Below are positions 3,484 through 32,170 of a stretch of DNA of 64,000 nt, piece by piece. Source of the stretch: a virus; IMG/VR virus record IMGVR_UViG_3300045988_076436; one strand, given 5' to 3'. The translations under genes and the position numbers were made by a program. Below the pieces are notes generated by a model. It was not told the DNA's origin. It ran no database searches and worked only from the letters and a program-made list of their open reading frames with translations. Numbering within the stretch: the stretch's first letter is position 1; each line of letters begins with the position of its first letter.

Positions 3484-3506
3484 TATAGAACAGAACCGTG
3501 ATTTTT

Positions 3507-6024: not shown

Positions 6025-6090
6025 AATCAGTAAAGCCCCACAACGTCCCTTTGGCTTAGTCGCCTAAGGAGGCTTAGTGAGGCTTATTTT

Positions 6091-8110: not shown

Positions 8111-11100
8111 CTATTGTTGCTTTCCGTTCCTTATCTCATTCACGGCATCCACAAGTTCTTTCTTCTTCTCATTGAGTTCGGCTTCAAGTTCCTTACGTTC
8201 ATCGTCCCTCAAAGTCTGGTCTTTCAACTCCTCGTTGATGTCGTCAATGTCACCCGAATACTCCTCGTAGGTTTCCAAGATGCGGTACTCTGGCGAGTTG
8301 TTCAGCCATGCTATCTTGTCGGCATAGTCAAACACTCCGTCTGCCGTATCGTTCTCGTAGTGGTTCAACCGGGTGCGCAACCGCTCGCTTTCGTTCTTTA
8401 TTCTGAAATACTCGTTGTTGATTGCACGGTACTCTGTACGCTCGTCACCACTCTTGACAAGTCGGTTCAGCAACAGGAAACTGCGAGGGTCATACTCTCG
8501 GTCGCCAAAGACGGTTTCTCCCATCTTTGTGAGTTTGTCAACCGTTGACGATACTCCGCCAAAGACACCGTTCAGCAGGTATTCCACCTGCGCAGGGTTT
8601 ATGTCAATCTTGCCGCTTGTATAGGCATCGCCACCAGTGGCTTCGTTCAGAGCCTTTGAGAGTCCTACCAAATATTTGTTGGCACTCTTGTACGCCTTAG
8701 TCCATTCGGGCATTTCCTTGTTGAAAGGAGTGTCCTTGTATATCGGCATACCAGTCCATCCCTCGTTGGTCATTACTTCCGCAACAGGCTTGACGGCACT
8801 CGGAATGAAAGACTTGAAGCTGCCGCCTCCCTCCATGAAGTCGATAGGCAACATCTGGCTCACTTGACTTGCAATTTGATTGGCAAGTTCACCTGCGGTG
8901 TAGTGTTCCTTGCCGCTCATCGCGCTCACCATCAGCTCACCCATGCCATACATGGCTCTGTATTCCACAGGGAGAGGAATGCTTATCCACGACTCTTTCA
9001 TGCCCGGTGTGCGGAATACGATATTGCTCCTGCGCACATATTCGGGCAAGTTATAGTAGTCGTTCTTGTTCTCATCGTCTCCATCATCACCGCCAATTCC
9101 TGCCATCAATGCACCGAGCAGGAACATTGTGGCGGCTCCTGCAACCGCTTTCTTCGGGTGTCGCTTTGCTTGCCGTCCGAAGTTGGTTGTGCCTTGTATG
9201 GCGGCATTCCAGAACACATAGAAACTGCGGCCAAGTCCCGAGGTGAATGCGGCTACATTGCCGACCTTTTTCTGACCATTCGCACCCATGAACTTTGCGC
9301 CACTGCCTTTCTTGTTGAAATTCACGCTTATCTCCTTGGCATCATAGATGCTGCGGTCAATGGAGCGTTTCATCTGCCGTGAGGTCATAAAGGCGACAAA
9401 ACGTGCGCAGTTCTCCACTGCCCGGTTGTACTCGTCAAGACGCTCACCCAACAAGTCCCAAGCCTTTCTGACTGGCATCTGTCCGCTGTTCTTCTTCAAC
9501 TCACGCTTGATGTCGTTCTTGCGCTGCTCAATGTCACGGATGTTGGCATAGCCTGTCTCACCGCCATTCATCATGAACTGGTGGAACATCTTTTCCGTAT
9601 CATCGTTCATGTCAAGTGTGCCATTGCGCAACTTGGCAAGGAGCGACTTCATCTTGGCAGGGTTCACCTTGGCAAAGTTCTTGTGGAAACGCCATGCGTA
9701 GTTTGGGCTTTCCTTTACCCATACCATTGTGTTGGCATAGAGCGCATCCCTTACAAAGTTCGACACCACGAAGTCGGGGTTTCGTGTGGTGTAGAATGCG
9801 GACAACTGGCGGTTTATGGTTTCTCCCACACGCAGGATTGCACCGATTGCGCCCGATGTGTCATTGTCGGGGTTGGTCTGTCCGTTCAACGCTTGCGCGG
9901 CTCTCGGGTTGCCATTGATGGTGAGGATGATGTCCCTGCCGTTTCTTTTCACAAGCACTTGGTGCTGTCTGAGGTCGCGGCTCTCCAAGACTCTGTACGG
10001 AAATTCGGGATTGTCCTTCTGTTTCTTGAAGTGCGCGGGGTCGTTATATGCGGCTTGCCGTATTGCGTCCTCGAAGTCACGCATCTTGCGCTCCACATCG
10101 CGAGGGCTGTCGTCCTCCTCAATGCGCTCCGTGCCTTGCAGGTCACCCGAGTTGATGGGTTGCCACTCGTCAGTCGCGTCATTGTGCCACAGCCACAAGT
10201 CGCTCACACTCACAAGGTCGCTCGGGTGGTTTAGCGCGAAGTTCAAGAATTTCTGCTTCACTAATGTATTGCGGTTGCCCTGCATTATCGCGCTCTCGGC
10301 CATCGCCTCCATGTTGGCAAACGGGTCGTCGGCCTTGCTCTTGCGTCCCTTGGCGGTTTTGATGGGAGCGTTGAATGCGCTGTGCTTGTCAGAAAGATAG
10401 GCATACGCCTCGTCACTCGTCTTGTCGTCAAAGCCACGCAACGGTATGTAGTTCTTGTACATTCCGCTGATGTCATTGTATGTGGCCTTGCTGATAAGTC
10501 CGCTCTCGTAGGTTTTCAGCAAGGTGGCATAGTTCACTGCGTTCACCTTGTCCCACAAGTCGTTTGTGGCGTGCCGTCCCTCGTAGTCCGTTACCATGCG
10601 CTGTGCCTCATTCTCCGCGTCCACAACATTGTCAGTACCTGTCAAGGCGGTAAGTCCTGCATAGTCGCGTCCTCGGTTCTCAAAGTATAACTCCTCCTCA
10701 CGGTCGTGTTTGCGCTGCTTCACATCGTCAAGCGTGTCTGCCGCATCTTGATCGAGTGGGTCTATGGCTGCGGCTCGCTCAGCCTTGCGCAACTCTATCC
10801 TAAACTCCTCACCAGCTTGCTTCTCGGCTGATCTGCGTGCCATTACCTCGTTACGCTCCAATCCGTGCTTAGCCATCATATAGTCAGTCAACTCAGCACG
10901 CTCGTCCGCTGTCTCAGCAAGTTTCGCCACCTCCTCAAGCATAGGTTTGAACAATGTCTGCGCAAATGCTGTACACTCTGCTTGGTTTACAGAAGAAAGG
11001 CGATTTTCACCAAGATAGGCGTTCTCATATCCAGCTACGTCCTCTATGTAAGCCTTTTTGCCCTCTGCTTTGAGTATTGCGTCCATAGCCTCTTTCAGAC

Positions 11101-14100
11101 CGAGCATACTATCTTGCAGAGCCTCCTGCGTCTGGTACATTCCACGGCTCACACGCTGCTCGTATATGTCACGTGCCATTGCCTTGTTGTACTCCACACT
11201 GTCGCCATCGCGGAACTTCATGCCCCCATCGGGGTCGGTCTCTGGACTATGGTTGTCCTTTGCAAGTCCTGTCTTGTCGTGATACTCGCCAGTATCAAGC
11301 AAATCAGAAATACTTTCTGCAATGGCACTCAATGTTCCCGCAGGTGCTTTGCGAATATCCTCTTTGAAGTAAACATACTCGTTTGCAAACTTCCCATCTT
11401 CTGCATGAAATCTGTTAGGACTTCGTTTAGTCTTGATAACAATGCTTTCGACAGGCTCATCACCGACATTTGCTGCGTTGATGTTATGGTTGCTCACTCT
11501 GATAGTAAACACCTTGCCATTGGGCGTTTCAAATGAGCCATACCCACTTCCAGTGCTGCCTCTTGTCAGACCAAGACTATTGCTTAAATCTGATATAAAG
11601 CCCTTGCTGTCAGTTGTATTCTTGTATGTTTTTGCAACATTTGCAAGTGCTTCTTTGGCTTTCTCACGTTTTTGCTGTACCTTTGCAGCGTGTTCAACAT
11701 CAGTAGGCTCTAAGTGCTTAAGTGCTGCCTCATTGAGTTGGGCACTTTTTTTATGTCCATCACTGAACTTCGTCTCACCAAACCCTGTCTTTCTCCGCAT
11801 TACCTCGGTATCGGCTGCGTCAAACACATCGGGCTTACCTCCGTTCTTTTTGCGCTTGTATGCTTCGTGCAGGACAAACGCCCATTCCTTATCACCCCAT
11901 TTCTTCTTGCCAGGGATTTTCAATCCGTCAAGCAACTTTTGAAGGGCTTTTTGGAGCATGGACTTCAACTTGCCCCAGAACGTAAGTTCCTCGGCACTCA
12001 TCTTCTCAAAGCCTTTCTCACCGATGCGCCCTGCAAGGTCTGCTCCGTATTCCTCCGTGGCATCACGTTTGAACTGCTCGCGCTTCTTGCTTGCCTCGGC
12101 ATGAGCCTCTGCCATGTCCGCATAGTAGGAGGCGTTGCTGTCCTCGCCATTGGCCTCATGCTCCTTGCGCTTCTTCTCGCGGAGTCTGTCCACCTCGGCA
12201 TCGTACATCTTCTGCGCCATGCGGTCAATGCTGTTCCGTATCTCGTCTTTCGACACGCGGTAGAGTTCATCGAGCGCATTGTTCAGTTTCTCCTCTTCGG
12301 GGAACAGCACACGCAGTCCGTCATGCCCCACAACCTCATGGATAAACGTGTTCTCCACATCTGCCATGTTTGCGTTGTTCGGCACAACAATGGTTACTTC
12401 ACCAGTCAAAGGATTAAAGCTGCCTTTCATTCTGCGCTGGCGTGTACTCGGCAATGCGGCCACCTCCTCGTCCGTGCGGATAATGCGCACAGGTGTATGG
12501 AGCCGCTCTGCCAACTCGTTCACACGCTCGGCCATCGCATTGTTCATCGCCTCCTTGGGTTCGCCCACCCACTTGCCAGACATCTTGGCATTGATGCGTG
12601 CAATGTCCTCGTTGGTCATGAATGGTGCGTGTCCCTCGCGTCCGGGGATAACATCACGGTTCTCCATATTCTGCCTGTCAAGTGCAAGGCTTTCTTCGGG
12701 AGTGAGTTCTTTACCGTCCAACTCAAAGCGGTAGCCCATCTTCTCCAACTCTCTGCGCACCTGCGGCACAAAGCGGTTGTAGTCGCGGTGGCTCTTCAAT
12801 GCCTCACGCTTGCCGGGGTGTTTCTTCCAATATTCGTCAATGAGTTTGGCTTCCTCCTCGCGCGTGAGCACTTTGTCTATCTTGCTCCAGCGTGAGAGGT
12901 AGAGCGTGCGGCCGTTGTTCCACTGATGCGCTCCTGTGGGCAGTAGGGCATAGTCGGTATGGAATGGTTCGTCAATCTCCGATTTCGGAATGAGGCTGCG
13001 CACCACAACAAGGTTCGGACGCTTGTACGCCTCGCCAAACTGGGTGTTAAGCGGTGTCTCGATGGCATGGTCATAGGGGTCGTATGCCGCCCACAAGCCT
13101 TTGTCCTCGGGGTTCTTCTTCAAGAAGTATTGCAGCTGTGCGTCCTTGGTCTTGGGTTTCACGAACTTCAATCCGTCATTTATCTGCAACTCTGTGGTTT
13201 TCTTGCCGTCCACCACGATGTAGCCGTTCTTGTTGAGTTCGTCCAACTTGCGCTGCTGCTCCTCGGTGAGTTCCACCTTTGGAGGTGCAGAATAGTTCCA
13301 ACGTCTGCCTTCCAATGTTCTGCGCTCGCCTGTCTCGGCATCGGTAAATGCCATAGGTGAACCCAGTGCATCATCCTCAAAGGCTTGCACATTGCGATAT
13401 ACAGGCACAAGCTCGCTGTCGGGCAATGCCTCCAATTCCTGCGCCTTTGGATCATCGTCCTCAAGCAAACGGAACTTGGTCTTGTCTTCCGTTGTATCGT
13501 CCTCATCGTCTGTGACAATATCGGTTGCTGCCTCCACACTTGCGTCCATCTCGGCATACTTCTTTTCCTTTTCTGCCAACTCCTGTTTCATGGCCTCGGT
13601 GTATTCCTCCAACTGACGCTCGGCTTCTTCGAGTTCCTTACCAAACTCAAACGGTTTGCCCTCACGTGCTTTCAGTTGTTCCAACTCTGATTTGCCACGT
13701 TTCGCCATGCGTGCGGCAATGTCAAAACGCTCTGCGAAGTCCTTACCTGTGATTACATTCTCGGTGATGTCCTCCACGGCATTGCGCAAGAGGGACTGCT
13801 TGACAGGTATGTCGGTCAGTCCGAGTTCGGGGCATGAGTAGGTCATTTTGCGGTGTACCTCGGCAAAGAGCGAACCGCCATTGTTCACCGTTTCACGCGA
13901 CATCTCGGTCTTGACAACGAAGTCATAACCGCCCAACGACAGGGTGAGCGTGTTGGTCTGTGCCGAATTGCCGGGGTTCTCTTTCATGGCCTTTACCGCA
14001 TCGAGGATTTTCTTGTTGTGTTCCTTGATGAAGTCTGCCATGCCGTCCACGGAAGTGAATTTCTGCTTGCCGATGGTTATGTCCGTAAACTTGCCACCAG

Positions 14101-17100
14101 GGAATGCTTTCTGCACGGCAAGCAGATGGGCATTGGCTTCCTCGGCACGCTGCTCTGCCGTCTTTATCTTTCCCTCCAACTTGGGTTTGGCATTGTGGAT
14201 ATAGGTCTGGTCGGCCTCCCACTGCCTCCTGCGGCTCTCGTACTTGCGCACGTTCTTCTCCGCGTTGTTCTTCAGCAGGGCATACTCACTGCCCGAAAGC
14301 TGCGCCACGGTATCACCGAACACATCTTCTTCCTCTTCAAGCACACGGTTGTTCATGCTGTCCTGCATGAGGCGGTCGCCCTCCATCACGCTGTCGGCAA
14401 TCGCTCCCTTGGTTTTGAGTCGCTGATAGGCGGTTACGTCAAGGCTGTCCTCCACACCAAAGCGAAGAACACGCACAGGCTTTCCCCATTTCTTGTGCAG
14501 GTTGCCTTGTCTGAGGATACGTCCGTTGCGCTGCGTGTAGTCCATCGGTCTGTTGGGCGCGTCAAGGTGGATAAGGGTGTGCAGACGCTCCTGAATGTTC
14601 ACGCCTGTACCGAGGGTGGCGGTACTGCCGAGTACCACACGCACCTCGCCACGGTTCACCTTGTCGAAGATGTCAAGTTTCTGCTTTATCTTCATACCTG
14701 CTTTCATTACAACCACTTCATTGGCTGGCACACCCTGCTCAATGAGTTTCCGCTTGATGTCCTCATACAGGTTGAAACCGCTGCGCTTATTCTCGTAGTT
14801 GTCGGCAAATATGGCCACCGTTCCCTTGTAGTCGTTCGTTTCTTTCAGCGAGCGCAGAGTTTGGCGCACGGCCTCGTTGGTCTTGCTCCTTGGGTCATCC
14901 TCCGCATCCACCTGTACCAACCGTGCATCCACTGCCGCTCTTTGCGCTATGCCATACATGGTGAGGGGGATGCTGCTGTTCGCCTTTTTCTCCTTGCCGC
15001 TCATTTCATCAAAGCGTTTGAGTTCATCGCGCACATACTTCATCACGCTGCGCAGGGCGCGTGTCTGTGGCAGATAGATGTCTTGTGCCTTGCCGCCCTC
15101 CATTTCGGGTATTTTCTTCACCAACTCGGTTTGCTCCTTGGTCAGCGCAGTGTCTGAAACACTTGACCAGATACGCACCAGTTCGGGCATATTTGTATAT
15201 CCTGCAAAACGGTTCACCTCCTCAAATCTGCCACTTGTCTTGAATTCGGGCATCTGCTGTATGTTGCCGAAGTTGCGCACGAAGTCGTCAAAGTAGTAGA
15301 TACCGTACTCCTTCATGGTGTCCTTTGGCATGAGGTAGCGCATGAAAGTCCATATCTCTGCGGCTGTGTTGCTGATAGGCGTACCAGTGGCGAAGATGAC
15401 GTTACGTCCGTTGTTCTTCTCCAACACGGCCTGTGTCTTTAGATACACGCCTTGCGACTTCTTGCTGTACGATGGGTCAACGCCTTTCACACCGTGCTGC
15501 ATGGCTGTGGCAAATCCGAGGTGCTTGTATTCGTGCGCCTCGTCAATGAGCAGTGCGTCAATACCCATATCGTCAAAGTTCTCCACATCGTCCGTCCTGC
15601 GGTCGAGCATTTCCTGTGCCTTGACTGCCGCATTTTGCTTGGCTACGGCTTTCTTCTTCTCGTTGTTGGCGGTGCGCTTCTTCGATATGTCGTCCGACAA
15701 TGCGGCCATTTCCGCTTGCAGGTCGGCCAACTCCTTTTCGGCTCGTCTCGTTATCGGGTCTCTGCCGCTGGTGTCTGCTTCACGCATCTGTTCAAGCACA
15801 AGCATCTTCTCGTCTATCTTGTCTTGGATAAACTGCATCTGACGCTCATCGCTGTCGGGGATTTTATCCAACGTACTTTGTGGAATGATTACCATGTCCC
15901 AATCATTGTACTTTATCTTGGCATAGAAATTCTTTCGTCCCTCCGCGTTGCGGTCATTATCATCAAGCACAAGCACCTTGGCATTGGGGTATAGTTCCTT
16001 GGCCGAGGCAGCAAACTGGCCTACGGTGGCGTTCTGTACCACAATCATAGGTTTGTGTGCCGTGCCGAGTCTGCGCATCTCCATAGCGGTGGAGATAAGG
16101 GTGAAGGTCTTGCCCGTGCCTACCTCATGGGCGAGCAACAGCGGCTGCATGGTGCCGCGCACGATGGCCTTGCCTTGGTGTGGGCGCATCTTGAACTTGT
16201 GGGTCGCGCCTCCGAAGTATTCGGGTACGAAGTCATCGGGGATGCTCATTGGCACATAGTTGTTGAAGCGGTCGTTATACTCTTGCTCCATGCGTGCCGA
16301 CAAGTCCGCATCGCTCTGCATCTTCTGTCGTGCCCAGTCCTTGAAGTCCTGCCGTATCTCGTCTATCTTGGCGGCACACGCTGATGTGGCCTCGCGGTCG
16401 GTGATGGTCTCCGTTGTGCCGTCATAGTGTTTCTCTGTGCGTGATACGACAATCGTTTTGTTCTGTATGGCGGCTCCGATGAGTTCATGTCCCATGACGG
16501 TTTTCTTCAGCATCTCGCTCACCACACCCATTGCACGGTTCTTCTCTCCGCTCACATCGTAGGACAGTTCTTTCATGAACCATGTGCCGCCAGCTGCCGT
16601 AAACTGCACGTCTATGTCGGTGCGGTCTTTCACATACTCGTTATAGAGTTTGGGGTCAAGCCATGACGAGCCGAGCGTGAAGTCTATCAAGTGGGCAGGG
16701 ATATTCATCGGCACGACTTCCTGCAATGCCTTGATATTCTTGTCATACTCGCCATTCTCGTTGTTGGCCTCTGCCTGTTTCAGTTTCTCGCGCACATTAC
16801 CGCTCAGATACTGATACGACACTTCCATCTGACGTGAGGTTGGGTCTTCAAAGCCAAGGCCGCTTTCGATGATTTCACGTTTCACCGCATCCTCGCCCAT
16901 ACCGAGCTGCCCGGCAATGTAGGGTACATCAATGCGTCCGTTCTTGAACATGCTCACAACAACTCCGTCCTTGACGTTTTCGGGATGCGGCTCGTTCTCT
17001 TTCTCCACGACACGGCCTTTCATCACGTCTGCCTTGTCGTAGGTCTTGACAACACCGCCCTTACCGTCTCCCTGCTCGTTGTACACTTCCAACGAGAACA

Positions 17101-20100: not shown

Positions 20101-23100
20101 TTAACCACGGACGCACCTTGTCGCCAAGTGCCTTTACCATCATGGAGGCATAGTCACCGAATGACTCGTTGCCACGCTCCACCATTGCCATAGCCAGACG
20201 CTGACCAACGGACATGAGTTTCTGACGCTGCTCTGCGGTCAGTTCTTCGGGATCACGGAACTTCAGCCCTGCATCGCCCTCGTCTGCACCAATGCCGAGA
20301 ATATCACGGATGTCATTCATCAATCCGTTCATTTCCTCGTCACTCACCTCATACTTAGGCTTTTCTGCCTCCTTGGTCGGCTGTTTGGGTTCTTCCTTGG
20401 TTGGCTCTGTCGGCTTTTGTTCTGTCACATCGGCCACCTCAACCTTGTTGGCAGGTTTCTTAGCTATGGTTTTCTTCCGTGTTGCAGGCTTCTTCGGCTC
20501 TACGGCATCGCGCAACTCTTGTGCGGTCAGTGGCTGTGCGTCTGCCACGGCATCGGCATTGCCCACCATGTCTGCTGCTTTCTTCGCGTCCTCCTCACTG
20601 CGGAACATCCAGCCTCCGCTCTTGCGGTCTTTCCAACCGCGTGCAGGAGAAAAGCGTCCCTCGCCAAGTCTCTCCTTGGCAAATTCACTTACGGCACGCT
20701 CTTGGTCGGCTGTCAGTGCGCCATCAAACGTAAGCAGGGATACATCGCTCGCCTTACCTTTCTTATTAGTATAGGTGGTAGGAGTGATGGTATAAGCTGC
20801 ATTGTCTGCATTTCCCGTTGTCGGTGCTGCCGTATCTTCCTTTGCAGGAGAACTTGCCACGGTCTCTTTCTTCACCCCGGCATACTCCGCAAACGGCTTG
20901 GTCTTGCGGTGGCTGCTGTCTATCCACTTCTCGAAATCTTCGAGGTTCGTTGTGGACACGATAATCCTGCGCCCATCTTCCCAACCTTTCTCATAGTTGG
21001 CCAGATAGTCGCTCTTCGCCTCGTCCATGTCGTTAAAGCCAAGCATCACCTTGTGCTCGTCAAACGTGCCATCGGGATTGTACTGGTCCACCACATACAC
21101 CTTGCGCCCGTTCCAACCGTCAATATCATTGGAGAGGAACACATCTATGTGGTCTCCGTCCACGCCCACTGCACCACGAATGTAGCCGTAAGTGTTGTTC
21201 ATCTTGCTTTCCCATTGTTTGCCGTTGGCATCCGTGCCTTTGCGCACACTGCCCTCTGGCTGCTCAATGGTAATGTCGAACGTGCCGACCTGCACATGAC
21301 CTTTCTTGTAGTTGCCGGCCTCTTTCTGTGCCTCGGTGGGTTCGGTGTTCACATCGGCTGATGCGGTCTTTATCTTGGCTGACAACGGCTGCTCCGCTCC
21401 GTCAAGGTGTTTGACAACCTCTTGGAGGTCGCCAAACTGCTTGCCGTCCACCTCATAGTAAGTACCGGGATAGTTCTTGCTCTCGTCTGGAGCGTCCACT
21501 TTGATTACTTCCTTGCCGTCAATGAGGAGTTTCTGCTTGTAGATGTCGCCATTTGCGCTTGGCTCTGTCCACTCCTCATCGGTTTCGGTAATGCGCTTGC
21601 GCAATGCCTCTTCCTCTGCCTCGGCAAGTGTGTCAGTATTTGGTTCTTCTGCCTGTGGAGTATTATCCTGCTTGGCAGGTTCGGTCTCGGCTACTGCTGG
21701 CTGTTGAGGCTCTGCACTGCGTTGTACAGCATCCGCAGTTTGTTCAGTTGCCTCGTTTCCTCCACGCTGTTCTGCCTCGGCTTCTGCGGTGCGCTTGCGT
21801 TCTGCAATGGCTGCATCGACGAGGGCTTGTTGTTCTCTTGGTGTTGCATTTCTGAATAATTCATTTACGTCATTAAGTATTTGTTCCTTGGAACGTACAT
21901 CGCCAGTAAACATATCCAACTGACCACCAGCTGGAGCTACTGCGGCACTATTATAGGTAGAGAGTACTTTGCGCAGGTCACTTGGCTTACCGCTGTTCAG
22001 TATGTCGGCAAGCATCAATACCGTGCCGTCCGTCACTCGGCTGTCTCCGTATTCATCATCAAACAGACCTTGCTCCCTGCCGAATGGCGACACAGGCATT
22101 CCGTCCTTGAAGATGTCGGGGTGTGCGCTCTTGGCTCTTGCCACGAGGTCAACGGCTGCACCCAACTCATTGCTTAGGTCGTAGCCACTTTTGGCGAGTG
22201 TGCGGTTATGGGCTATCTCGTTCAAGCCCATAATGACCGACTGGCGCAATGTGGGTGTACTGATGATATGGCGCACGGCATCGGGCGAAGTCTGAAAGAC
22301 CTTGCCTATAAGCGTGTTCTCGATAAGTTCCTTTCCTGCTGCCGACAACGAATTGCCTGTGCGCATTTCGGGCAGCTGCATCTCGTTGATGACTCCTGCA
22401 CCGAGCAACTGACTGATAGCCGAAGATACTGCCTTGTCGTCTGCGTAGTAGTCTGAAAGGCGGTCAAAGCGGCTTATGTCATTGGTGATGCTCGTGAAAA
22501 CATTGTCGGGGACAATCTTGCCGAGTTTCACCGCGTGCTCTGGCTTGCTCTGTTTCTTCTGCTGTTCAGCGTTGAAACGTGCGAATGTGGTTGCATCGTA
22601 GGGCAGTTGCTCGTCCGGGACAAACACCACACGCGGATGTTTCATACCGTCTATCTGCTCGGGAGTGAAACCGTACATCTGTCCGAACTCGCGCAGATGG
22701 TCGATATACGCCTTGTCTGTTCCCTGCTGAGCTGCAATGTCGCCCGACATGGTGCGGTTGTTGCCCGAAAGCACTACACCGTCCTTGCTCACGATGACAG
22801 GCGACTGCAAGGCGCGGCTGTCGTAATTGTTGGCAATGTCCCTCACTATCCGCTGTGCGTCCGTGTCGCGCTTGTAGTCGCGGTCGTTCACGCTCTCTCC
22901 GTTCTCGTCAATGGGGAAACCCTCGGTCGGTTCAAAGGCGTTGTTGATGTCGTGGCTTGCTGACGCGGCTCCTGCCTCGGTGAGGACGTAATGCCCACGA
23001 ATGGTAGAACCGTCCGCAAGGGTGAGTGCGTTGGGATTGCCCTCCACCTTGGCGGCACCGTTCCACTTGGCCTTTATCTTCGGGTTCACGGCATGAGTGC

Positions 23101-26100
23101 CTACCTCGGCTTGCTCGGCAGCTTTCTGTGCCGCAATGCGTTTCTGCTCCCCGACCTGCGCCACGGCTGCATCGTGCATCTGCTTGTCGCGCTCACGTTG
23201 CTCTGCCTCACGCTGTTCACGAATTGCACGCTTACGCTCGTTCATAAGGGCGTAAATCCTCGACCATGCGCCCAGTGTCTCCTCTGCCTCCGCCACTTGT
23301 GCGTTGTACTGCTCCATGGCGGCATTGTAGTTGGCATCGGCCTCCTGCTGTGCCTTGACCATCGCCATAGGCGAACCTTTGAGGGACGGTGCTTTCTTGG
23401 TCGGCTGTTTCTTCTTCAGCGCATCGAGTGTCTTTTGCGCTTGCTCCACCTGCGCATTGACAATGGCGGTGGTGTTGGCCTCGTTGCCGCCTGTAACCTC
23501 GTTGAGCGCGTCAAGGGCAGTCTCCTTGTCGGCCTTCTCAAACATGGGTTCGCCAGTCTCCTCATTAAGAGGAACACGCTCCAGTGCAGTCGGCTGGCGG
23601 TTGGCCTCTTTCCACTGCACGCCTTGCGCTTCAAGTTGGTGCTGGGCAAGCTCATTTCCTCCACGCGCCATCTGTACAAGTTCTTCAGTTGTCGGAGAGG
23701 CAGGAGCAACAACATCATTGTCTTGCGGTGCGGAATTATCTGAAGCCTCCTCGGTCGCATCCGCATCTTCGGCATATTCTCTCGTCCATACCGGATTACC
23801 ATCCGCATCATTAATGCTCTCGACCATATTCTCAAACTCCTCGACAGGGATAATCTGCACACGCTTTCCGTTTAACGGCTCGTCTGTGCGTATCTCTACA
23901 CCGTCATCGCTGATATTCTGCACCTCGCCATGAACGTTTGCACCATCACCGTCAAGGAGTGTAAAGGTGTCATTCACGCCATATTGTACACCCTCGAGCG
24001 TTTTTTGTACACTTTCGCCATCATTCTGTACATTTTCATCCGATTTTGGTACGCTTTCACCATTTTCCATACCACCAAGCACGGCCTCATGCTCAGCTTG
24101 AATGTTGGCATAAGCCTCGTCAAGTTCGGCTTGTGGGTCAATGGCATCACCGAGATTGAAGATTTGGTCGGGACTGGTAAACTTGTATTCGCCTGTCTCG
24201 GCATCGCATATCACAATGCTTTGGTCGGAGTTCTGTGTGTCTATGCCTGTACCATCGGGAAGTACTGCGACATTACCTTTTACAATGTACACAGGCTTGT
24301 CGTCCACCTTCATGGTAGCTGGTTGCACCATGCCGTTGTCCTTGTGGGTGTGTCGCTCCACATTGGCGGCTACCTCCCTGCGCTTATTCTCCATCGCATC
24401 GTTGGACGCATCCTGCACACCGTCCATCGCTGCCTTGGCATTGATGTAGTAGAGTACCGCATTCTGCTGGTCTTCCGTCAGTTCGGGGTCGTTGGCCAAT
24501 GCCCACGGATTATCCTGTATCTCGGCCATGCGCATTTCTGCGTCCGTGCCGAAAGCGTCCTCACATTCCTGCAAGGCTTCTTTCATGCGAATGGATATGG
24601 CATCAATATCGGCTTTCGCGTCCGCGTCTCCTTGCTCCATTTTGTCCCACAACAGGCGAGACTGGTCGTAAACGGCTGAGGCTCCTGCCTCCTCGTCCGA
24701 CATGGGTTGCTCGGCTTCCTTGCTTTGCTCCGGGAACAACCGCTCTATGTAGTCCTGCACAGCAGCCTTTTCAGGGTCAGTACGCTTGCTCGGCTCTTTT
24801 TTGATGGCCGCGTCCACATCTACGCCTGTCTCTTCCTTGATGGCTGCACGGATAGCCTCTGGACGTTCTGCGTCTGCCATGCCTCTGTTCTCTTCCATGA
24901 ACTTGTCAATGGCATCGACCATCTGCCCATAGTTGGCGATTGCGTCCTTGTCGCCCTCCTTTGCAGCTTGGTAGTTGCGCTTGACGGTTTCGGGGTCAGC
25001 ACCGGGGGCAACGGCTTCAACAGCTGCGTCCCACACCTTGTTGTCGGCTTTAGCCTCGGTGTAACGCTCACCTACATCAACGCTGTTGAGTTCGGCCTGT
25101 CGCATGATTTTGTCCTGCTCCCTCTTGGCTGATGCCTCGTCTGCAAAGCGTCTGTTCGTTACGACCTCGCCATTGGCTGTAACGGACTTCACGAAGATAT
25201 TGCCGTGTTCGTCCTTTTCGGTGGTGTACCCGGTAACAGTACCCATCGGCAACTGATGCCCGGTGAGGATATAATATGCCTTGGCTCTTGCGCTCTGGCT
25301 CACATTCGGGTCTTGCATGAGGCGTTCCATAGTCTCGTAACCGTCAAACTCGGGGTGTGTCTTGAGCCACTGCTTGCCCAAATCCTCAACCTCGGCTTCG
25401 GGAATGTCAAAGTTCATTACCTTTCCGTCCGTGGTTGTCGGCTGTTTTGCCTTGGCTTTGGGCTGCTGTTTTGGTGTACGCGTGAAGAGTGCCGCAAGGT
25501 CGCCATAGCCGTACTTCTGCAACTCCTCGCGCTCTTCCTTGGTGAATACCATGTCGCGCGGACTTGCGTCCAACTGCTTACGCAACAATTCACCAAAACT
25601 CATGCGGTTGTGATTGCGCTCCTGCATGGTCTTGGGGTTCTCGATAGGGCGCAACCCTGCAATAACCCTCGGAGCGGACTTCACCATGTGCTGACCCTTG
25701 AAACCGAGCATCATCGCCATGTTGTCCGTCCACACGTCCCATGCACTGCGCTTATTGGGATTGCCATCTTCCAACTTGGAATTTTCAATCCATTCGGGAG
25801 TAGAGAAGATTGTCCCCTCGGCAACGGTTGATGTCGCAAGTTCTCCAAAACGGATACCTCCCTTACCATACACGTTTGATGTACTTTTTACCCATTTGTC
25901 GGCAACATTGCCCAACAATGGGGAGATAGTGCCAGTTACAGAGCCAAGGATAGTGCCTCGTCCTGTCGATTTCAAGATGTCCTCTGCCGAATATCCCTCA
26001 TTCTCGCCTGTCTGCGGATTGATGTGTCCGCCATGCAGCCACTGGCTCTCGCCCTCCTTGATGCCCTCGTATGTGCCGAAGTTCAAGCCTCCACCAACCG

Positions 26101-27457
26101 AGCCAGCCACGACACGCCCTGCCAATGTGTTGCCGAACAACCGTGCACCCACATTGGTGGCTGCTTTCTTTGCAACAATGCGACCTCCTTCATTCAAGGC
26201 CATCTTGCCGCCAAATGAGCCGATACCGCCCGAAATGTAGGTGGTAGGGTCGAAGAACATACCTGCTACCGTGCCGCCCACCTGCGCCCAGCGGTGGTTC
26301 TTGCCGTAGTCGCTCATGGCTCTCTCATACGCATCAAGGTCTCCAGTCGTTCCTGCCTCGCTCCGTGCCAATCCCTTGGTGATGGTGCGCAACAGGTTCA
26401 TGTCGGCTGCGGTCTTGGCGAAGAACTCCAAGGTGCTCTTGGGCGTGTTCTTTGCCACGGCATACTTGTACACGGCATTGTCAGATAACTGACGAGCCAT
26501 AGCCGATGCCGAGTTCTGCAACTGCTGTTCGCTTGCGGTTGGGTATTGCTTTTTCAACTGCTGATAGCAAGATGTGGTCATCTGCTTGCCGACACGTCCC
26601 CACGCATTGTCCATCATCTTTTGCAGGTCAAAGCGTGTGAGGCGCGACACCTCATTCTTGTGCGAGTTGGTGGCTGCATCGACAATGTGCATCTCACGCC
26701 CTCCATGTAGCCACGGATTGCCACTGTACACTTCCTCCGCGTTCTTGTTGCGGTCGGCCGCATAATTCGCCTCAGCCTCTTTCCACAAGGCTGCAACAGC
26801 TGCACTGGCTGGTTTCTGTGCCGCATCAACCTGCTGGTCGTTCATGTTAAGGCCAAGAGGCTTGCTTGTCTCCTGCCGAAAGCGCGTACTTTCCATGTCT
26901 GCCAACGCCTTGCTGCTATATCGGTTGCCTGTCGGTGTAATATAGGTCCGCTCGAACTTCTTTGTGCGAGGATTGTACTTTATACCACCTTTCTTTGTCT
27001 GACCGAAGCCAAGCCCGAACCCATACTGCTTCATGTTCTTCATGCGCTCGTTGTTGTCGGCTATCATGGCTTGCGTCTGCTGCTGCATCTGCTGCACTTG
27101 GTCAATCATCGCCTGTCGCTGTGCCGGGGTGAGCGGCTTGTCTTTCTGCTGTGCAGGAGCCGCACTTGGCGCACTTGCAGGTTTCTGTTGCAGTGTTGCC
27201 GCCTGTGGCTTTTGCTGCTGAGGCTTGGGTGCAGGTGCGGTGTTTACCGCATGAAGTCCCAACCGTTTGCCAAACTCCTCATAGGTAGGACTATCAATGG
27301 CTCCGTCCGCTTTCAGTGCATTGTATAACTGCAAGCGGTTCTGATAGCCCTCCTTTCCGGGAGCAAGCATCTTACTGCGAAAATTCTCTCGGCTCTTGCT
27401 GACTGCACCGTCTTTTTTCAGTGCGTCATAGAGTTGGTCTATTTTATCGTATGGCAT
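8111..27457 (-). CDS. giant polyvalent protein (6,448 aa): ParB-like + pyrophosphatase-like + N6-adenine MTase + SF2 helicase + zincin metallopeptidase + C-terminal membrane module
   Basis: Single uninterrupted ORF from ATG 27455-27457 to TAG 8111-8113. The motifs are listed as separate sub-features. K/P/E/T-rich linkers separate the modules. The gene is packed 4 nt after the upstream gene and 7 nt before the downstream one. Confidence 0.9.
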   Translation of the reverse strand: MPYDKIDQLYDALKKDGAVSKSRENFRSKMLAPGKEGYQNRLQLYNALKADGAIDSPTYEEFGKRLGLHAVNTAPAPKPQQQKPQAATLQQKPASAPSAAPAQQKDKPLTPAQRQAMIDQVQQMQQQTQAMIADNNERMKNMKQYGFGLGFGQTKKGGIKYNPRTKKFERTYITPTGNRYSSKALADMESTRFRQETSKPLGLNMNDQQVDAAQKPASAAVAALWKEAEANYAADRNKNAEEVYSGNPWLHGGREMHIVDAATNSHKNEVSRLTRFDLQKMMDNAWGRVGKQMTTSCYQQLKKQYPTASEQQLQNSASAMARQLSDNAVYKYAVAKNTPKSTLEFFAKTAADMNLLRTITKGLARSEAGTTGDLDAYERAMSDYGKNHRWAQVGGTVAGMFFDPTTYISGGIGSFGGKMALNEGGRIVAKKAATNVGARLFGNTLAGRVVAGSVGGGLNFGTYEGIKEGESQWLHGGHINPQTGENEGYSAEDILKSTGRGTILGSVTGTISPLLGNVADKWVKSTSNVYGKGGIRFGELATSTVAEGTIFSTPEWIENSKLEDGNPNKRSAWDVWTDNMAMMLGFKGQHMVKSAPRVIAGLRPIENPKTMQERNHNRMSFGELLRKQLDASPRDMVFTKEEREELQKYGYGDLAALFTRTPKQQPKAKAKQPTTTDGKVMNFDIPEAEVEDLGKQWLKTHPEFDGYETMERLMQDPNVSQSARAKAYYILTGHQLPMGTVTGYTTEKDEHGNIFVKSVTANGEVVTNRRFADEASAKREQDKIMRQAELNSVDVGERYTEAKADNKVWDAAVEAVAPGADPETVKRNYQAAKEGDKDAIANYGQMVDAIDKFMEENRGMADAERPEAIRAAIKEETGVDVDAAIKKEPSKRTDPEKAAVQDYIERLFPEQSKEAEQPMSDEEAGASAVYDQSRLLWDKMEQGDADAKADIDAISIRMKEALQECEDAFGTDAEMRMAEIQDNPWALANDPELTEDQQNAVLYYINAKAAMDGVQDASNDAMENKRREVAANVERHTHKDNGMVQPATMKVDDKPVYIVKGNVAVLPDGTGIDTQNSDQSIVICDAETGEYKFTSPDQIFNLGDAIDPQAELDEAYANIQAEHEAVLGGMENGESVPKSDENVQNDGESVQKTLEGVQYGVNDTFTLLDGDGANVHGEVQNISDDGVEIRTDEPLNGKRVQIIPVEEFENMVESINDADGNPVWTREYAEDADATEEASDNSAPQDNDVVAPASPTTEELVQMARGGNELAQHQLEAQGVQWKEANRQPTALERVPLNEETGEPMFEKADKETALDALNEVTGGNEANTTAIVNAQVEQAQKTLDALKKKQPTKKAPSLKGSPMAMVKAQQEADANYNAAMEQYNAQVAEAEETLGAWSRIYALMNERKRAIREQREAEQRERDKQMHDAAVAQVGEQKRIAAQKAAEQAEVGTHAVNPKIKAKWNGAAKVEGNPNALTLADGSTIRGHYVLTEAGAASASHDINNAFEPTEGFPIDENGESVNDRDYKRDTDAQRIVRDIANNYDSRALQSPVIVSKDGVVLSGNNRTMSGDIAAQQGTDKAYIDHLREFGQMYGFTPEQIDGMKHPRVVFVPDEQLPYDATTFARFNAEQQKKQSKPEHAVKLGKIVPDNVFTSITNDISRFDRLSDYYADDKAVSSAISQLLGAGVINEMQLPEMRTGNSLSAAGKELIENTLIGKVFQTSPDAVRHIISTPTLRQSVIMGLNEIAHNRTLAKSGYDLSNELGAAVDLVARAKSAHPDIFKDGMPVSPFGREQGLFDDEYGDSRVTDGTVLMLADILNSGKPSDLRKVLSTYNSAAVAPAGGQLDMFTGDVRSKEQILNDVNELFRNATPREQQALVDAAIAERKRTAEAEAEQRGGNEATEQTADAVQRSAEPQQPAVAETEPAKQDNTPQAEEPNTDTLAEAEEEALRKRITETDEEWTEPSANGDIYKQKLLIDGKEVIKVDAPDESKNYPGTYYEVDGKQFGDLQEVVKHLDGAEQPLSAKIKTASADVNTEPTEAQKEAGNYKKGHVQVGTFDITIEQPEGSVRKGTDANGKQWESKMNNTYGYIRGAVGVDGDHIDVFLSNDIDGWNGRKVYVVDQYNPDGTFDEHKVMLGFNDMDEAKSDYLANYEKGWEDGRRIIVSTTNLEDFEKWIDSSHRKTKPFAEYAGVKKETVASSPAKEDTAAPTTGNADNAAYTITPTTYTNKKGKASDVSLLTFDGALTADQERAVSEFAKERLGEGRFSPARGWKDRKSGGWMFRSEEDAKKAADMVGNADAVADAQPLTAQELRDAVEPKKPATRKKTIAKKPANKVEVADVTEQKPTEPTKEEPKQPTKEAEKPKYEVSDEEMNGLMNDIRDILGIGADEGDAGLKFRDPEELTAEQRQKLMSVGQRLAMAMVERGNESFGDYASMMVKALGDKVRPWLKAFYGGLEYVPGYDKYALTTYEEVKAFDVENFDKPQHDVLAQADMIVEEGKAQTAADKANNELKAIRNEQRKENDKQTEADTAAVAEKAEATASEAETLAGTSSDRHELSAAAERVDDSLEEVNEQLALLGYYEADHVEKDFNEAYGYMRNAEKKAVNDAARLAGQLVDDLGLDLYEATHSDKTDKKGNRKAKPLAVANIAPAGGDVTIHLPLAEGRELYVNIQLEPAFDKGDTDRRGDNLEVTGIMCRVENPNASGNDRYGQNMWFAEDVTYDDLLKNVQRATYKYIPERGDVKKGEYKVGDKVQYSSDGNTWHDAVVAQPNELDGIRIDTGQAPVMWVNAHPDQLRHKTQAEPQNEDIFQKAERIAKEAREKNAAKATTEPTTTPASAEQPKPATKKKTSKKKVKPEQTVGNLFAGLFDETEENGLQRNDDAVRSQGVQADNSGQQQGLRRGERATRKAAAQESGRPDGGRGGQGTGTNRAESAGLHGLTEPKNTRNNHSERGADHAPTSVGGRIEANIKAIELAHELLESGETATSEQMSVLRQFSGWGGLGAAFSDGGYDWKQRERNKKIRELLGEEAYEQAVMSANSAYYTPAYVVDTLWDIAGKLGFKGGNILEGSAGIGNILGQMPTDMSERSDIHAIEIDGTSGGILSLLYPDAKVDIQGFEQTRIPNGSVDLAITNVPFVTGLRVNDTTGDSDLSKKFHNIHDFCIAKNVRKLREGGLGIFISSNGTLDNSKALRDWVVNEGGSDFIGAFRMNNKTFGGTTVTSDIIVIRKRVNGQKSANAIDVSTISGERTAEYQEPGARRAKPLSMDYNKYFIEYPDHMAGEMRFAFEEGDTFRPTSKGLYPVSGKDQGKMLTDFVQSFKEEERGSVETTDSHKTSYVNDASADGKRLGEMYLKDGKLVTAGFGGYYPLDVNDKKIKGHTKQECFTAYSAIKTALTDVMKYQTENEGDAGLRPLIDKLNKAYDNFVNTYGHFTKNNQLAWLRNDVDYPNVFSLEVYNEQGDGKGGVVKTYDKADVMKGRVVEKENEPHPENVKDGVVVSMFKNGRIDVPYIAGQLGMGEDAVKREIIESGLGFEDPTSRQMEVSYQYLSGNVREKLKQAEANNENGEYDKNIKALQEVVPMNIPAHLIDFTLGSSWLDPKLYNEYVKDRTDIDVQFTAAGGTWFMKELSYDVSGEKNRAMGVVSEMLKKTVMGHELIGAAIQNKTIVVSRTEKHYDGTTETITDREATSACAAKIDEIRQDFKDWARQKMQSDADLSARMEQEYNDRFNNYVPMSIPDDFVPEYFGGATHKFKMRPHQGKAIVRGTMQPLLLAHEVGTGKTFTLISTAMEMRRLGTAHKPMIVVQNATVGQFAASAKELYPNAKVLVLDDNDRNAEGRKNFYAKIKYNDWDMVIIPQSTLDKIPDSDERQMQFIQDKIDEKMLVLEQMREADTSGRDPITRRAEKELADLQAEMAALSDDISKKRTANNEKKKAVAKQNAAVKAQEMLDRRTDDVENFDDMGIDALLIDEAHEYKHLGFATAMQHGVKGVDPSYSKKSQGVYLKTQAVLEKNNGRNVIFATGTPISNTAAEIWTFMRYLMPKDTMKEYGIYYFDDFVRNFGNIQQMPEFKTSGRFEEVNRFAGYTNMPELVRIWSSVSDTALTKEQTELVKKIPEMEGGKAQDIYLPQTRALRSVMKYVRDELKRFDEMSGKEKKANSSIPLTMYGIAQRAAVDARLVQVDAEDDPRSKTNEAVRQTLRSLKETNDYKGTVAIFADNYENKRSGFNLYEDIKRKLIEQGVPANEVVVMKAGMKIKQKLDIFDKVNRGEVRVVLGSTATLGTGVNIQERLHTLIHLDAPNRPMDYTQRNGRILRQGNLHKKWGKPVRVLRFGVEDSLDVTAYQRLKTKGAIADSVMEGDRLMQDSMNNRVLEEEEDVFGDTVAQLSGSEYALLKNNAEKNVRKYESRRRQWEADQTYIHNAKPKLEGKIKTAEQRAEEANAHLLAVQKAFPGGKFTDITIGKQKFTSVDGMADFIKEHNKKILDAVKAMKENPGNSAQTNTLTLSLGGYDFVVKTEMSRETVNNGGSLFAEVHRKMTYSCPELGLTDIPVKQSLLRNAVEDITENVITGKDFAERFDIAARMAKRGKSELEQLKAREGKPFEFGKELEEAERQLEEYTEAMKQELAEKEKKYAEMDASVEAATDIVTDDEDDTTEDKTKFRLLEDDDPKAQELEALPDSELVPVYRNVQAFEDDALGSPMAFTDAETGERRTLEGRRWNYSAPPKVELTEEQQRKLDELNKNGYIVVDGKKTTELQINDGLKFVKPKTKDAQLQYFLKKNPEDKGLWAAYDPYDHAIETPLNTQFGEAYKRPNLVVVRSLIPKSEIDEPFHTDYALLPTGAHQWNNGRTLYLSRWSKIDKVLTREEEAKLIDEYWKKHPGKREALKSHRDYNRFVPQVRRELEKMGYRFELDGKELTPEESLALDRQNMENRDVIPGREGHAPFMTNEDIARINAKMSGKWVGEPKEAMNNAMAERVNELAERLHTPVRIIRTDEEVAALPSTRQRRMKGSFNPLTGEVTIVVPNNANMADVENTFIHEVVGHDGLRVLFPEEEKLNNALDELYRVSKDEIRNSIDRMAQKMYDAEVDRLREKKRKEHEANGEDSNASYYADMAEAHAEASKKREQFKRDATEEYGADLAGRIGEKGFEKMSAEELTFWGKLKSMLQKALQKLLDGLKIPGKKKWGDKEWAFVLHEAYKRKKNGGKPDVFDAADTEVMRRKTGFGETKFSDGHKKSAQLNEAALKHLEPTDVEHAAKVQQKREKAKEALANVAKTYKNTTDSKGFISDLSNSLGLTRGSTGSGYGSFETPNGKVFTIRVSNHNINAANVGDEPVESIVIKTKRSPNRFHAEDGKFANEYVYFKEDIRKAPAGTLSAIAESISDLLDTGEYHDKTGLAKDNHSPETDPDGGMKFRDGDSVEYNKAMARDIYEQRVSRGMYQTQEALQDSMLGLKEAMDAILKAEGKKAYIEDVAGYENAYLGENRLSSVNQAECTAFAQTLFKPMLEEVAKLAETADERAELTDYMMAKHGLERNEVMARRSAEKQAGEEFRIELRKAERAAAIDPLDQDAADTLDDVKQRKHDREEELYFENRGRDYAGLTALTGTDNVVDAENEAQRMVTDYEGRHATNDLWDKVNAVNYATLLKTYESGLISKATYNDISGMYKNYIPLRGFDDKTSDEAYAYLSDKHSAFNAPIKTAKGRKSKADDPFANMEAMAESAIMQGNRNTLVKQKFLNFALNHPSDLVSVSDLWLWHNDATDEWQPINSGDLQGTERIEEDDSPRDVERKMRDFEDAIRQAAYNDPAHFKKQKDNPEFPYRVLESRDLRQHQVLVKRNGRDIILTINGNPRAAQALNGQTNPDNDTSGAIGAILRVGETINRQLSAFYTTRNPDFVVSNFVRDALYANTMVWVKESPNYAWRFHKNFAKVNPAKMKSLLAKLRNGTLDMNDDTEKMFHQFMMNGGETGYANIRDIEQRKNDIKRELKKNSGQMPVRKAWDLLGERLDEYNRAVENCARFVAFMTSRQMKRSIDRSIYDAKEISVNFNKKGSGAKFMGANGQKKVGNVAAFTSGLGRSFYVFWNAAIQGTTNFGRQAKRHPKKAVAGAATMFLLGALMAGIGGDDGDDENKNDYYNLPEYVRRSNIVFRTPGMKESWISIPLPVEYRAMYGMGELMVSAMSGKEHYTAGELANQIASQVSQMLPIDFMEGGGSFKSFIPSAVKPVAEVMTNEGWTGMPIYKDTPFNKEMPEWTKAYKSANKYLVGLSKALNEATGGDAYTSGKIDINPAQVEYLLNGVFGGVSSTVDKLTKMGETVFGDREYDPRSFLLLNRLVKSGDERTEYRAINNEYFRIKNESERLRTRLNHYENDTADGVFDYADKIAWLNNSPEYRILETYEEYSGDIDDINEELKDQTLRDDERKELEAELNEKKKELVDAVNEIRNGKQQ
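9090..9148 (-). other. predicted transmembrane helix in the C-terminal module of the giant ORF
   Basis: AVAGAATMFLLGALMAGIGG followed by the acidic stretch DDGDDENKND. This is the only clearly hydrophobic helix I noticed in the last ~900 aa. Confidence 0.5.
12200..12480 (-). other. domain of giant ORF: zincin-like metallopeptidase (HExxH)
   Basis: TFIHEVVGHDGLRVLF; HEVVGH is encoded at 12323-12340. Domain bounds are approximate. Confidence 0.6.
14450..16200 (-). other. domain of giant ORF: SF2 (SNF2/DEAD-like) helicase
   Basis: Walker A AHEVGTGKTF (GTGKT at 16106-16120), DEAH box LLIDEAHEY (15533-15544), FATGTPISN, and motif VI YTQRNGRILRQGN (14501-14536). Confidence 0.85.
17760..18470 (-). 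other. domain of giant ORF: gamma-class N6-adenine DNA methyltransferase
   Basis: Motif I NILEGSAGIGN (18221-18253) and motif IV DLAITNVPF (NVPF at 18038-18049). Upstream LRQFSGWGGLG is typical of DarB/Eco57I-like MTase N-termini. Confidence 0.8.
20915..21330 (-). other. domain of giant ORF: inorganic-pyrophosphatase-like (approximate bounds)
   Basis: NNTYGYIRGAVGVDGDHIDVFLSN (about 21130-21200) matches the family I PPase signature (YG.IP.T..DGDP.DVLV). Confidence 0.55.
22650..23005 (-). other. domain of giant ORF: ParB/sulfiredoxin-like fold (approximate bounds)
   Basis: RALQSPVIVSKDGVVLSGNNRTMSGD (SGNNR at 22754-22768) resembles the ParB-type 'PI.V...y.ii.G.hR' core. It is preceded by HYVLTEAGAASASHD. 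Confidence 0.45.
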
Positions 27458-28715: not shown

Positions 28716-29195
28716 TTAGAACGGCATGGACGATGCCGCGCTTGCCACACCCTGCACGGCTCCTGCAATGGCTTGTGCCTTGCCTTGCTCGATGGCGTTG
28801 AGCTGGTTCACATACTCATCGTCCTTGGCTCTGTACGTCTGTTCTATCTGGTCTTTGCGTGCGTCCGCATTGACGGCAATCTGCGATGTGGCGTCTGCCA
28901 AGGCTTGGTTGTTGGCGGCTTTGGCCGCTGCCATACTCTCGTCCGTGCCACCCATCACGGCTTGCGCTCCTGCCGCCTGTTGGTTGCGGTTCTTGATGCT
29001 CTGCTCCGTCTGGGTGAGTATCCTCTGCGCGTCAGCCCTCTGTGTGGCGTCCTCGTTATACCTGCGGTCATACCAGTCTTGGTTGGCCTTGCGCTGTGCC
29101 TCGACATTCTTCTTCATGCGCTTCATCGCCTTGCTCGCGCTGATGCCACCGAAGATGCTTCCTGCGGCTCCTACCGCTGCTCCTATCAGTCCCAT
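28716..29195 (-). CDS. hypothetical protein with Gly-zipper N-terminus (159 aa)
   Basis: MGLIGAAVGAAGSIFGGISASKA, then a Q/A/N-rich helical region. First gene of the minus-strand operon that continues into the giant ORF. Confidence 0.6.
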   Translation of the reverse strand: MGLIGAAVGAAGSIFGGISASKAMKRMKKNVEAQRKANQDWYDRRYNEDATQRADAQRILTQTEQSIKNRNQQAAGAQAVMGGTDESMAAAKAANNQALADATSQIAVNADARKDQIEQTYRAKDDEYVNQLNAIEQGKAQAIAGAVQGVASAASSMPF

Positions 29196-32136: not shown

Positions 32137-32170
32137 TGTCTCTGTATTTTTTTTGTTATTCAAAAATCAT

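Follow-up and report, generated by a model that had tools for sequence, protein, structure and literature searches.

A DarB-like polyvalent protein of 6,448 amino acids encoded in the head gene module of a phage genome

The IMG/VR virus record IMGVR_UViG_3300045988_076436, analyzed here as one stretch of 64,000 nucleotides (the window), devotes 30% of its length to a single open reading frame (ORF) on the minus strand, which runs from ATG at 27457 to TAG at 8111 with zero internal stops. The product is a DarB-like phage-type polyvalent protein. The overall reading preferred here, at a probability of about 0.7, is that this protein, similar in kind to P1 DarB and Bcep22 gp75, would be packaged and injected with the DNA as an early multi-enzyme toolkit. 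The identity of the protein is held with more confidence than this overall picture, and the details of processing and delivery with less. The features of the giant gene, in amino acids (aa) of the protein and nucleotides (nt) of the window, are the following:

8111..27457 (-) whole ORF, 6,448 aa, 719 kDa, pI 5.3; DarB-like phage-type polyvalent protein
27248..27457 (-) conserved N-terminal leader of ~70 aa, kept in relatives even with a different following N-module
23558..27457 (-) N-terminal module (N-module), aa 1-~1300, including a Gly-rich region at aa 380-560
22634..23014 (-) ddrB-ParB (PF18763), aa ~1482-1608; Pfam E=2.4e-7, 31.3 bits against a cut-off of 27.6
20921..21334 (-) InPase (PF18823; type I inorganic pyrophosphatase-like), aa ~2042-2179; Pfam E=1.1e-52
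17762..18556 (-) DarB-type N6-adenine DNA methylase, aa 2968-3232; motif I ILEGSAGIGN, motif IV NVPF
14504..16195 (-) SWI2/SNF2-type superfamily 2 (SF2) ATPase; GTGKT, DEAH and QRNGRILRQGN; Pfam matches and homology to P1 DarB and Bcep22 gp75
11747..12562 (-) HExxxH module of ~270 aa, HEVVGH at aa 5040-5045; putative variant zincin peptidase
8114..11233 (-) C-terminal module of ~1,040 aa, mostly helical, with LPD38, a transmembrane (TM)-like helix and an IPLRGF motif

Domain architecture and comparison with known systems

The giant protein was scanned in tiles against Pfam, PHROGs and NCBIfam, with Pfam also searched at E≤1. The ParB-like, pyrophosphatase-like and SF2 helicase elements that an earlier note on this DNA had read from the sequence were recovered by Pfam as ddrB-ParB, InPase, and ResIII/SNF2 together with Helicase_C, and each of the motifs quoted in that note occurs a single time, at most a few nt from where it had been placed. 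The ddrB-ParB region also matches P1 DdrB (blastp E=1.7e-5). The lobes of the ATPase lie at aa ~3755-4047 (ResIII/SNF2-rel) and aa 4207-4318 (Helicase_C, Pfam E=5e-12), and the region matches P1 DarB 662-1200 (blastp E=3e-20). The methylase segment had no direct Pfam match, even at E≤1. It aligns over aa 2968-3232 with P1 DarB 47-274 (blastp E=4e-22), a part that overlaps DarB's own Pfam matches to N6_Mtase (145-290) and Eco57I (166-244), and it matches phrog_11801 'DNA methyltransferase' (1e-56). The N6-adenine methyltransferase (MTase) named in the earlier note was therefore accepted by transitive homology through P1 DarB and by motifs I and IV, with the PHROG match in agreement.

Tiles over aa ~1900-6440 matched PHROG 10089 'DarB-like antirestriction' (profile length 4,647), with per-tile E values down to 3e-267, and the C-terminal ~1,000 aa matched PHROG 14770. 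Within the C-terminal module, LPD38 (PF18857) covers aa ~6131-6321 (nt 8495-9067; Pfam E=1e-42) and the IPLRGF motif nt 10430-10447. The TM helix claimed for this module is present at aa 6104-6122 (nt 9092-9148) as the single strong TM-like segment of the protein. Composition analysis confirmed also the low-complexity linkers rich in K, P, E and T that had been claimed between the modules, and located five of them, rich in K/P/E/T/A/Q, at aa 63-132, 1871-1973, 2320-2380, 2503-2562 and 2796-2880. The Gly-rich hydrophobic tract that had been described near the N-terminus is indeed Gly-rich (19% Gly over aa 380-560) but only weakly hydrophobic. The leader (aa 1-70) consists of two tandem ~25-aa motifs (..LY..L...G.......F.. 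and ..Y..L...G.....YEEF..) followed by an A/P/Q-rich linker, and it is a candidate assembly or capsid-targeting signal.

Several parts of the protein gave no match. The first ~1,400 aa had none in Pfam, PHROGs or NCBIfam, and neither Pfam at E≤1 nor NCBIfam showed anything credible in the N-module, at aa 2190-2960, 3330-3760 and 4380-4700, in the HExxxH region or at aa 5250-6130. Single-sequence searches of the PDB returned INO80 for the MTase-helicase block, through the helicase motifs alone, and nothing for the C-terminal 1,769 aa.

Polyvalent proteins have been defined as proteins with 2-15 domains (Iyer, Burroughs, Anand, de Souza and Aravind 2017, J Bacteriol; PMC5512222). According to the same work, InPase, DdrB-ParB and LPD38 are confined to phage-type polyvalent proteins, which are predicted to be packaged; DarB is the archetype of the methylase-SWI2/SNF2 dyad; P1 DarB, a component of the virion head, acts in cis to protect DNA against type I restriction; and the metallopeptidase (MPTase) domains are proposed to process polyvalent proteins (PMC5512222). 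Phage-type polyvalent proteins carry at least two effector or enzymatic domains and are encoded among packaging genes. The window protein has ddrB-ParB, InPase, N6A-MTase, SNF2 ATPase and LPD38, and its gene has the portal gene 7 nt downstream and the genes of the large terminase (TerL), an SU10-type major capsid protein and a gp14-like protein in the same region. It also has the DarB-like fusion of an N6-adenine methylase to a SWI2/SNF2 ATPase, homologous to DarB. The assignment to the DarB-like phage-type class, already made in the earlier note, was upheld by the profile matches, by homology to P1 DarB, P1 DdrB and Bcep22 gp75, and by the gene context.

The window protein resembles the phage-type proteins of Iyer et al. 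in the large number of enzymatic and LPD domains that a single polypeptide carries, in being encoded beside portal-terminase genes, in its vocabulary (N6A-methylase and SWI2/SNF2 dyad, DdrB-ParB, InPase, LPD38 and a candidate HEXXXH-type MPTase), and in a cargo that varies among orthologs. However, its ~1,300-aa N-module and 70-aa leader match none of their Pfam families, and its HExxxH module reaches no Pfam metallopeptidase model. A text search of the main text of that paper (PMC5512222) found no protein length figures.

Compared with P1 DarB (2,255 aa), which has the homologous methylase and SNF2 ATPase and whose gene also adjoins the portal gene, the giant protein is ~2.9 times as long, in keeping with the earlier estimate of about three times. 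P1 spreads its functions over separate Dar proteins, whereas the window protein has a DdrB-type ParB in the same polypeptide. P1 has a contractile tail, and the window phage differs from it in having P22-portal and SU10-capsid type genes. Bcep22 gp75 and JC1 gp69 (PHROG 10089) are likewise each encoded by one giant gene within the virion module. Residues 1586-3166 of Bcep22 gp75 (4,602 aa) match aa 2970-4616 of the giant protein (E=2e-157, 28% identity over 1,700 aa), and residues 3679-4463 match aa 5409-6306 with the LPD38 module (E=6e-34). Bcep22 gp75 differs in having an N-terminal SLT transglycosylase and LPD3 and in lacking Pfam matches to InPase and ddrB-ParB; with 1,850 aa more, the window protein also has a different N-terminal third. 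In Burkholderia phage JC1 the DarB-like protein has 4,515 aa and takes up 22% of the genome (PMC9144972); 51 unique peptides of it were identified in virions purified on CsCl (PMC9144972).

The C-terminal module was found in 336 phage records, including Stx-converting phages and also Vibrio, Ralstonia and Burkholderia phages. Its AlphaFold2 model (predicted local distance difference test, pLDDT, 78) is mostly helical and is similar in fold, in BFVD, to the terminal fragments of 68 polyvalent proteins of viruses (E≤0.001). The module is therefore a shared 'chassis' of phage polyvalent proteins. A resemblance to T7 gp15/gp16 was not supported, as no fold match was found in the PDB; neither did Pfam give any match to T7 gp15/gp16 in the giant protein.

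Of the zincin claimed in the earlier note, the motif HEVVGH is present in a discrete and conserved module, but it reads HExxxH, so that its two histidines flank four residues instead of the three of the canonical HExxH, and no metallopeptidase match was obtained. The module (aa ~4966-5237) is flanked in relatives by MuF_C, PBECR3, LPD3, S8 peptidase, ART or methyltransferase domains. Across 17 aligned sequences, with identity down to 28%, neither the H, E and H of the motif nor a TEEY that follows it by ~95 residues shows any variation; zincin-like MPTases of polyvalent proteins would also have a Glu ligand downstream of their motif. The AlphaFold2 model of the module (pLDDT 82.7) consists of an N-terminal helix and a three-stranded sheet followed by the motif helix. 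A helix, three strands and a motif helix is the order of the zincin core according to Iyer et al. 2017 (PMC5512222), and the HEXXXH variant occurs among the MPTases of polyvalent proteins (PMC5512222). On the modelled fold, a variant zincin peptidase is plausible but unproven.

Relatives, conservation and interruptions of the frame

Three scans of IMG/VR, merged by contig coordinates, gave 82 related gut-virome contigs, which have the same gene in the same position. The ORF is complete in 22 of the 82 contigs and has there a length of 3,260-6,757 aa; 18 of these ORFs have at least 5,500 aa and seven are longer than that of the window. In 42 more contigs, a frame that runs off the fetched DNA stays open over at least 5,500 aa. 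The complete ORFs end with TAG in 21 cases of 22, and a portal-sized gene (~650-700 aa) follows within a few nt where downstream DNA was fetched. Each 150-aa tile of the giant protein has homologs in 22-77 of the 82 contigs, at a best identity of 83-100%, so that the protein, a mosaic, is built of shared modules throughout and has no segment unique to it. The window protein had been called an extreme member of its class, but ~6,400 aa is the norm in this clade and complete relatives reach 6,757 aa.

The ratio of nonsynonymous to synonymous substitution (dN/dS), calculated pairwise against nine full-length relatives, was 0.03-0.07 over aa 3200-5200 and 5600-6400, and 0.1-0.3 in the other parts where it was estimable, dS being often saturated and the first ~1,200 aa strongly diverged between subclades. 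The methylase-ATPase core (0.03-0.06) is among the most constrained parts of the protein. The giant gene is real, well conserved and under purifying selection.

At the DNA level the similarity extends to a single phage record, that of Bacteroides phage BKO1-TP3 (PQ571269). Its gp55 is a syntenic gene of 16,662 nt (5,553 aa) that adjoins the portal gene and is annotated in GenBank as 'DarB-like antirestriction'. In phage BS-TP4 (PQ571277), gp3 (5,391 aa) is in the same place by the portal gene and is annotated 'hypothetical protein'. These two proteins agree with that of the window in the type of phage, in their position on the portal side and in 70% identity over the methylase-helicase core; they differ in being shorter and in having a divergent N-terminal half (24-35% identity). 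It had been left open whether the combination of domains was undescribed. With PHROG 10089, the GenBank annotation of BKO1-TP3 gp55 and the domain set of Iyer et al. 2017, this is not so: the combination, and the general phenomenon of polyvalent, DarB-like, capsid-borne effectors, is already described.

Also a Bacteroides ovatus prophage (L127; GCA_024788605.1, 6.0-Mb contig, locus 9150-14935) has kept the synteny, in a decayed form. There the last 1,644 aa (Helicase_C and LPD38) and a 278-aa helicase fragment remain, adjoining integrase fragments, and the genes for the portal and an SU10-type capsid protein follow downstream. The 1,644-aa 'helicase-related protein' was considered as an informative split variant and rejected, being a truncated copy in a decayed prophage. 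The scan of genome contigs gave three loci in metagenome-assembled genomes, with unreliable bin names. More widely, the methylase-helicase block was found in 134 phage records, including Bcep22-like Burkholderia, Ralstonia, Klebsiella ('PLxRFG protein'), Erwinia, Vibrio, Agrobacterium and Sinorhizobium phages and 16 Escherichia phage records, the last counted and not viewed one by one.

The matches to the giant protein in the protein database were all of at most ~2,500 aa, against ORFs of 5,500-6,757 aa at the DNA level, and many of the contigs encoding these matches are a few kb long. Protein surveys of that collection would therefore under-report giant genes. In 2016, a phage gene of 14,256 bp was ranked as the second largest (PMC5062602). 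The genes of the present clade, 19.3 kb in the window and up to 20.3 kb (6,757 aa), exceed that length and may be among the largest phage genes.

In-frame stops interrupt the gene in a few of the relatives, all of them in or beside inter-module linkers and with homology continuing across them. In one contig (L002), a TAG (14051) is aligned near aa 1337 of the window protein and a TAA (17231) near aa 2291, and in another (L003), a TAG (13805) lies near aa 1280. The N-module is thereby cut off as a gene call of 1350 aa in L002 and of 1268 aa in L003. Two contigs from different IMG/VR datasets (L019, at 11294, and L020, at 15425) share the same TAG opposite a CAG (Gln) of the window at aa ~2808. 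After its TAG, L002 has an in-frame ATG (GSPMAMAQ; the gene call begins 76 nt downstream), and the window keeps Met residues at the equivalent place (GSPMAMVK). The interruptions suggest that the modules tolerate being separate polypeptides, which fits a protein that is normally cut into pieces. The stops are compatible with fission and re-initiation, with nonsense polymorphism and with read-through alike. Recoding or suppression of TAG was considered unlikely, as the window has no tRNA genes, nearly all complete ORFs end with TAG, and one of the interruptions is a TAA.

That the continuous frame would be incidental, and several proteins translated separately from internal starts, is very improbable. 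The stops of L002, L003 and the two further contigs, which break the frame into two or three ORFs in or beside the linkers, speak for it, as do the ATG of L002 and the Met residues kept in the window. However, 60 of the 82 contigs keep a single open frame of at least 5,500 aa, nearly all the complete ORFs end with TAG and have, where downstream DNA was fetched, the portal gene just after it, and a continuity of 19 kb would not last without selection for one polypeptide. An artefact of assembly, by a chimeric join or a hidden frameshift, has next to no probability. No support was found for it beyond the a priori concern of the earlier note, whereas the same architecture, order and neighbours recur in the genomes of two cultured phages and in the 82 contigs, which come from several studies and were assembled independently, all 150-aa tiles are covered, and purifying selection is seen in the windows with estimable dS. 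Chimeric assembly was rejected on these grounds of synteny, tile coverage and dN/dS. The chance of 6,448 random codons without a stop is ~1e-134.

Gene neighbourhood and phage type

The giant gene is tightly packed between its neighbours, and both junctions are as the earlier note had read them: the upstream gene ends with TAA and is followed after 4 nt (GGAT) by the ATG, and the TAG of the giant gene is separated from the ATG of the portal gene by 7 nt (TTAAACA). The adjoining genes are:

28716..29195 (-) 159-aa gene, T7 internal virion protein gp14 family, weak (PF24072, E=8.4e-6)
27462..28697 (-) 411-aa gene without family match; relatives have upstream ORFs of ~400-440 aa
6091..8103 (-) portal gene, P22-type (phrog_156, 5e-97)

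The order on the minus strand is thus the gp14-like gene, the 411-aa gene, the giant gene, the portal gene and, further on, the SU10-type major capsid protein gene. The large terminase gene lies on the opposite strand, between the portal and the SU10-type capsid genes. The placement in a head module proposed for the gene agrees with these neighbours. The gp14-like gene hints at a T7-like cluster of internal core or ejection genes.

A tyrosine integrase gene (30643-32163, minus strand) adjoins a low-GC stretch at 32000-34000 (40.5% against ~53% elsewhere). The prophages of L002 and L003 adjoin a pyruvate-phosphate dikinase gene, which is a likely attachment locus. The window has also a diversity-generating retroelement (DGR) at 54005-63951 on the minus strand, with a reverse transcriptase ORF at 54005-55558 (RVT_1, E=1e-11), a template repeat (TR) of 110 nt at 55596-55705 and a variable repeat (VR) at 56551-56660. 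The VR is at the 3' end of the target ORF 56518-63951 (2,477 aa, phrog_14959), and 16 of the 16 mismatches between TR and VR are at template adenines. The window is best read as a temperate Bacteroidales phage, its portal of the P22 type and its capsid protein of the SU10 type, which has also an integrase and a DGR.

Proposed role and alternative readings

Under the preferred reading of a packaged toolkit, the modules joined by linkers would be, in order, the leader, the N-module, ddrB-ParB, InPase, small unassigned domains, the methylase coupled to the SWI2/SNF2 ATPase, the HExxxH module and the C-terminal LPD38 helical module. The protein would be made late together with the head proteins, a few copies would be built into the capsid, and they would be ejected into the cell along with the DNA. 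There the methylase-ATPase pair would guard the entering genome in cis against restriction, in the manner of P1 DarB, while the ParB-like and pyrophosphatase modules would act on nucleic acids and nucleotides of the host or its defences. The C-terminal module, possibly with the leader, may serve incorporation, passage of the envelope or both. This delivery role is conjecture, because the module has no fold likeness to T7 gp15/gp16 or to any solved structure. Cutting of the polypeptide at the linkers, possibly by the HExxxH module, is likewise conjectural, and the self-cleavage by a zincin put forward in the earlier note is unproven. Delivery with the DNA is suggested by the virion proteomics of JC1, whose protein is a distant homolog, and by the example of P1 DarB.

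Several results weigh against this reading. The paper on BKO1-TP3 and BS-TP4 says nothing of the giant gene. Altogether ~2,500 aa are without assignment (the N-module, aa 2200-2960 and aa 4400-4960). The gp14 match, at 26.2 bits, is 0.8 below the Pfam cut-off of 27, and the match in the relative L002 is likewise weak. No SLT lytic transglycosylase was found by Pfam in any tile of the giant protein, while Bcep22 gp75 and T7 gp16 have one, and the C-terminal model has no fold match in the PDB, T7 gp15/gp16 included. Of the accessory Dar proteins with which P1 DarB works (DarA, Hdf, DdrA and Ulx), DarA was compared, and it gave no blastp match to the giant protein at E≤1e-3. For the HExxxH module, no peptidase model of Pfam was reached by the 17 members scanned, a profile search of the PDB was empty, the best Foldseek match of the model in the PDB had E=0.56, and hhalign against P1 DdrB (a predicted MPTase) gave a probability of 0.1.

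The protein could alternatively be chiefly a structural ejection (internal core) protein, a counterpart of T7 gp15/gp16 that forms a conduit through the Bacteroides envelope and has the enzymes as passengers. This is unlikely, and it overlaps with the packaged-toolkit reading rather than opposing it. The place of the gene after a gp14-like gene and before the portal gene is in its favour, and so are the C-terminal module, kept across many phage groups (several described as podoviruses) and bearing the sole TM-like helix, and the N-terminal SLT of Bcep22 gp75, similar to that of T7 gp16. However, the C-terminal module has no likeness in fold or sequence to the T7 core proteins or to PDB entries, the giant protein has no transglycosylase domain, and the methylase-ATPase core is among the parts with the lowest dN/dS, because of which the enzymes do not seem to be mere passengers. 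Also improbable, and more clearly so, is a protein that is not packaged but acts in the producing cell, methylating or remodelling progeny DNA or working late against host defences. The clade offers no direct evidence of packaging, the protein is very large (719 kDa), and a methylase-helicase pair could as well modify DNA before it is packaged. Against this stand the position inside the head cluster immediately upstream of the portal gene, an arrangement shared with the relatives, the presence of the distant JC1 homolog in virions and of P1 DarB in the head, and the restriction of InPase, DdrB-ParB and LPD38 to the phage type of polyvalent protein, for which packaging is predicted.

A more far-reaching and rather doubtful proposal is that the leader and the C-terminal module would together form an undescribed packaging-delivery chassis, by which a Bacteroides phage of the short-tailed type would load and inject a ~720-kDa polyprotein whose linkers would then be cleaved by an HExxxH peptidase of an atypical kind. 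If this were true, the in-frame stops of the relatives in or beside the linkers would mark functional boundaries of the modules.

Whichever of these details hold, the interest of the system lies in its N-terminal third and conserved leader, in the novel structure of the C-terminal chassis and in the cultured relatives. Common temperate phages of human-gut Bacteroidales give ~30% of their genome to one gene, and this implies that selection strongly favours a toolkit made in advance and delivered upon infection. The cultured relatives BKO1-TP3 and BS-TP4 make the system experimentally tractable, and from it one could learn how packaging, ejection and processing work for a protein of more than 700 kDa, and against which Bacteroides defences the protein is directed.

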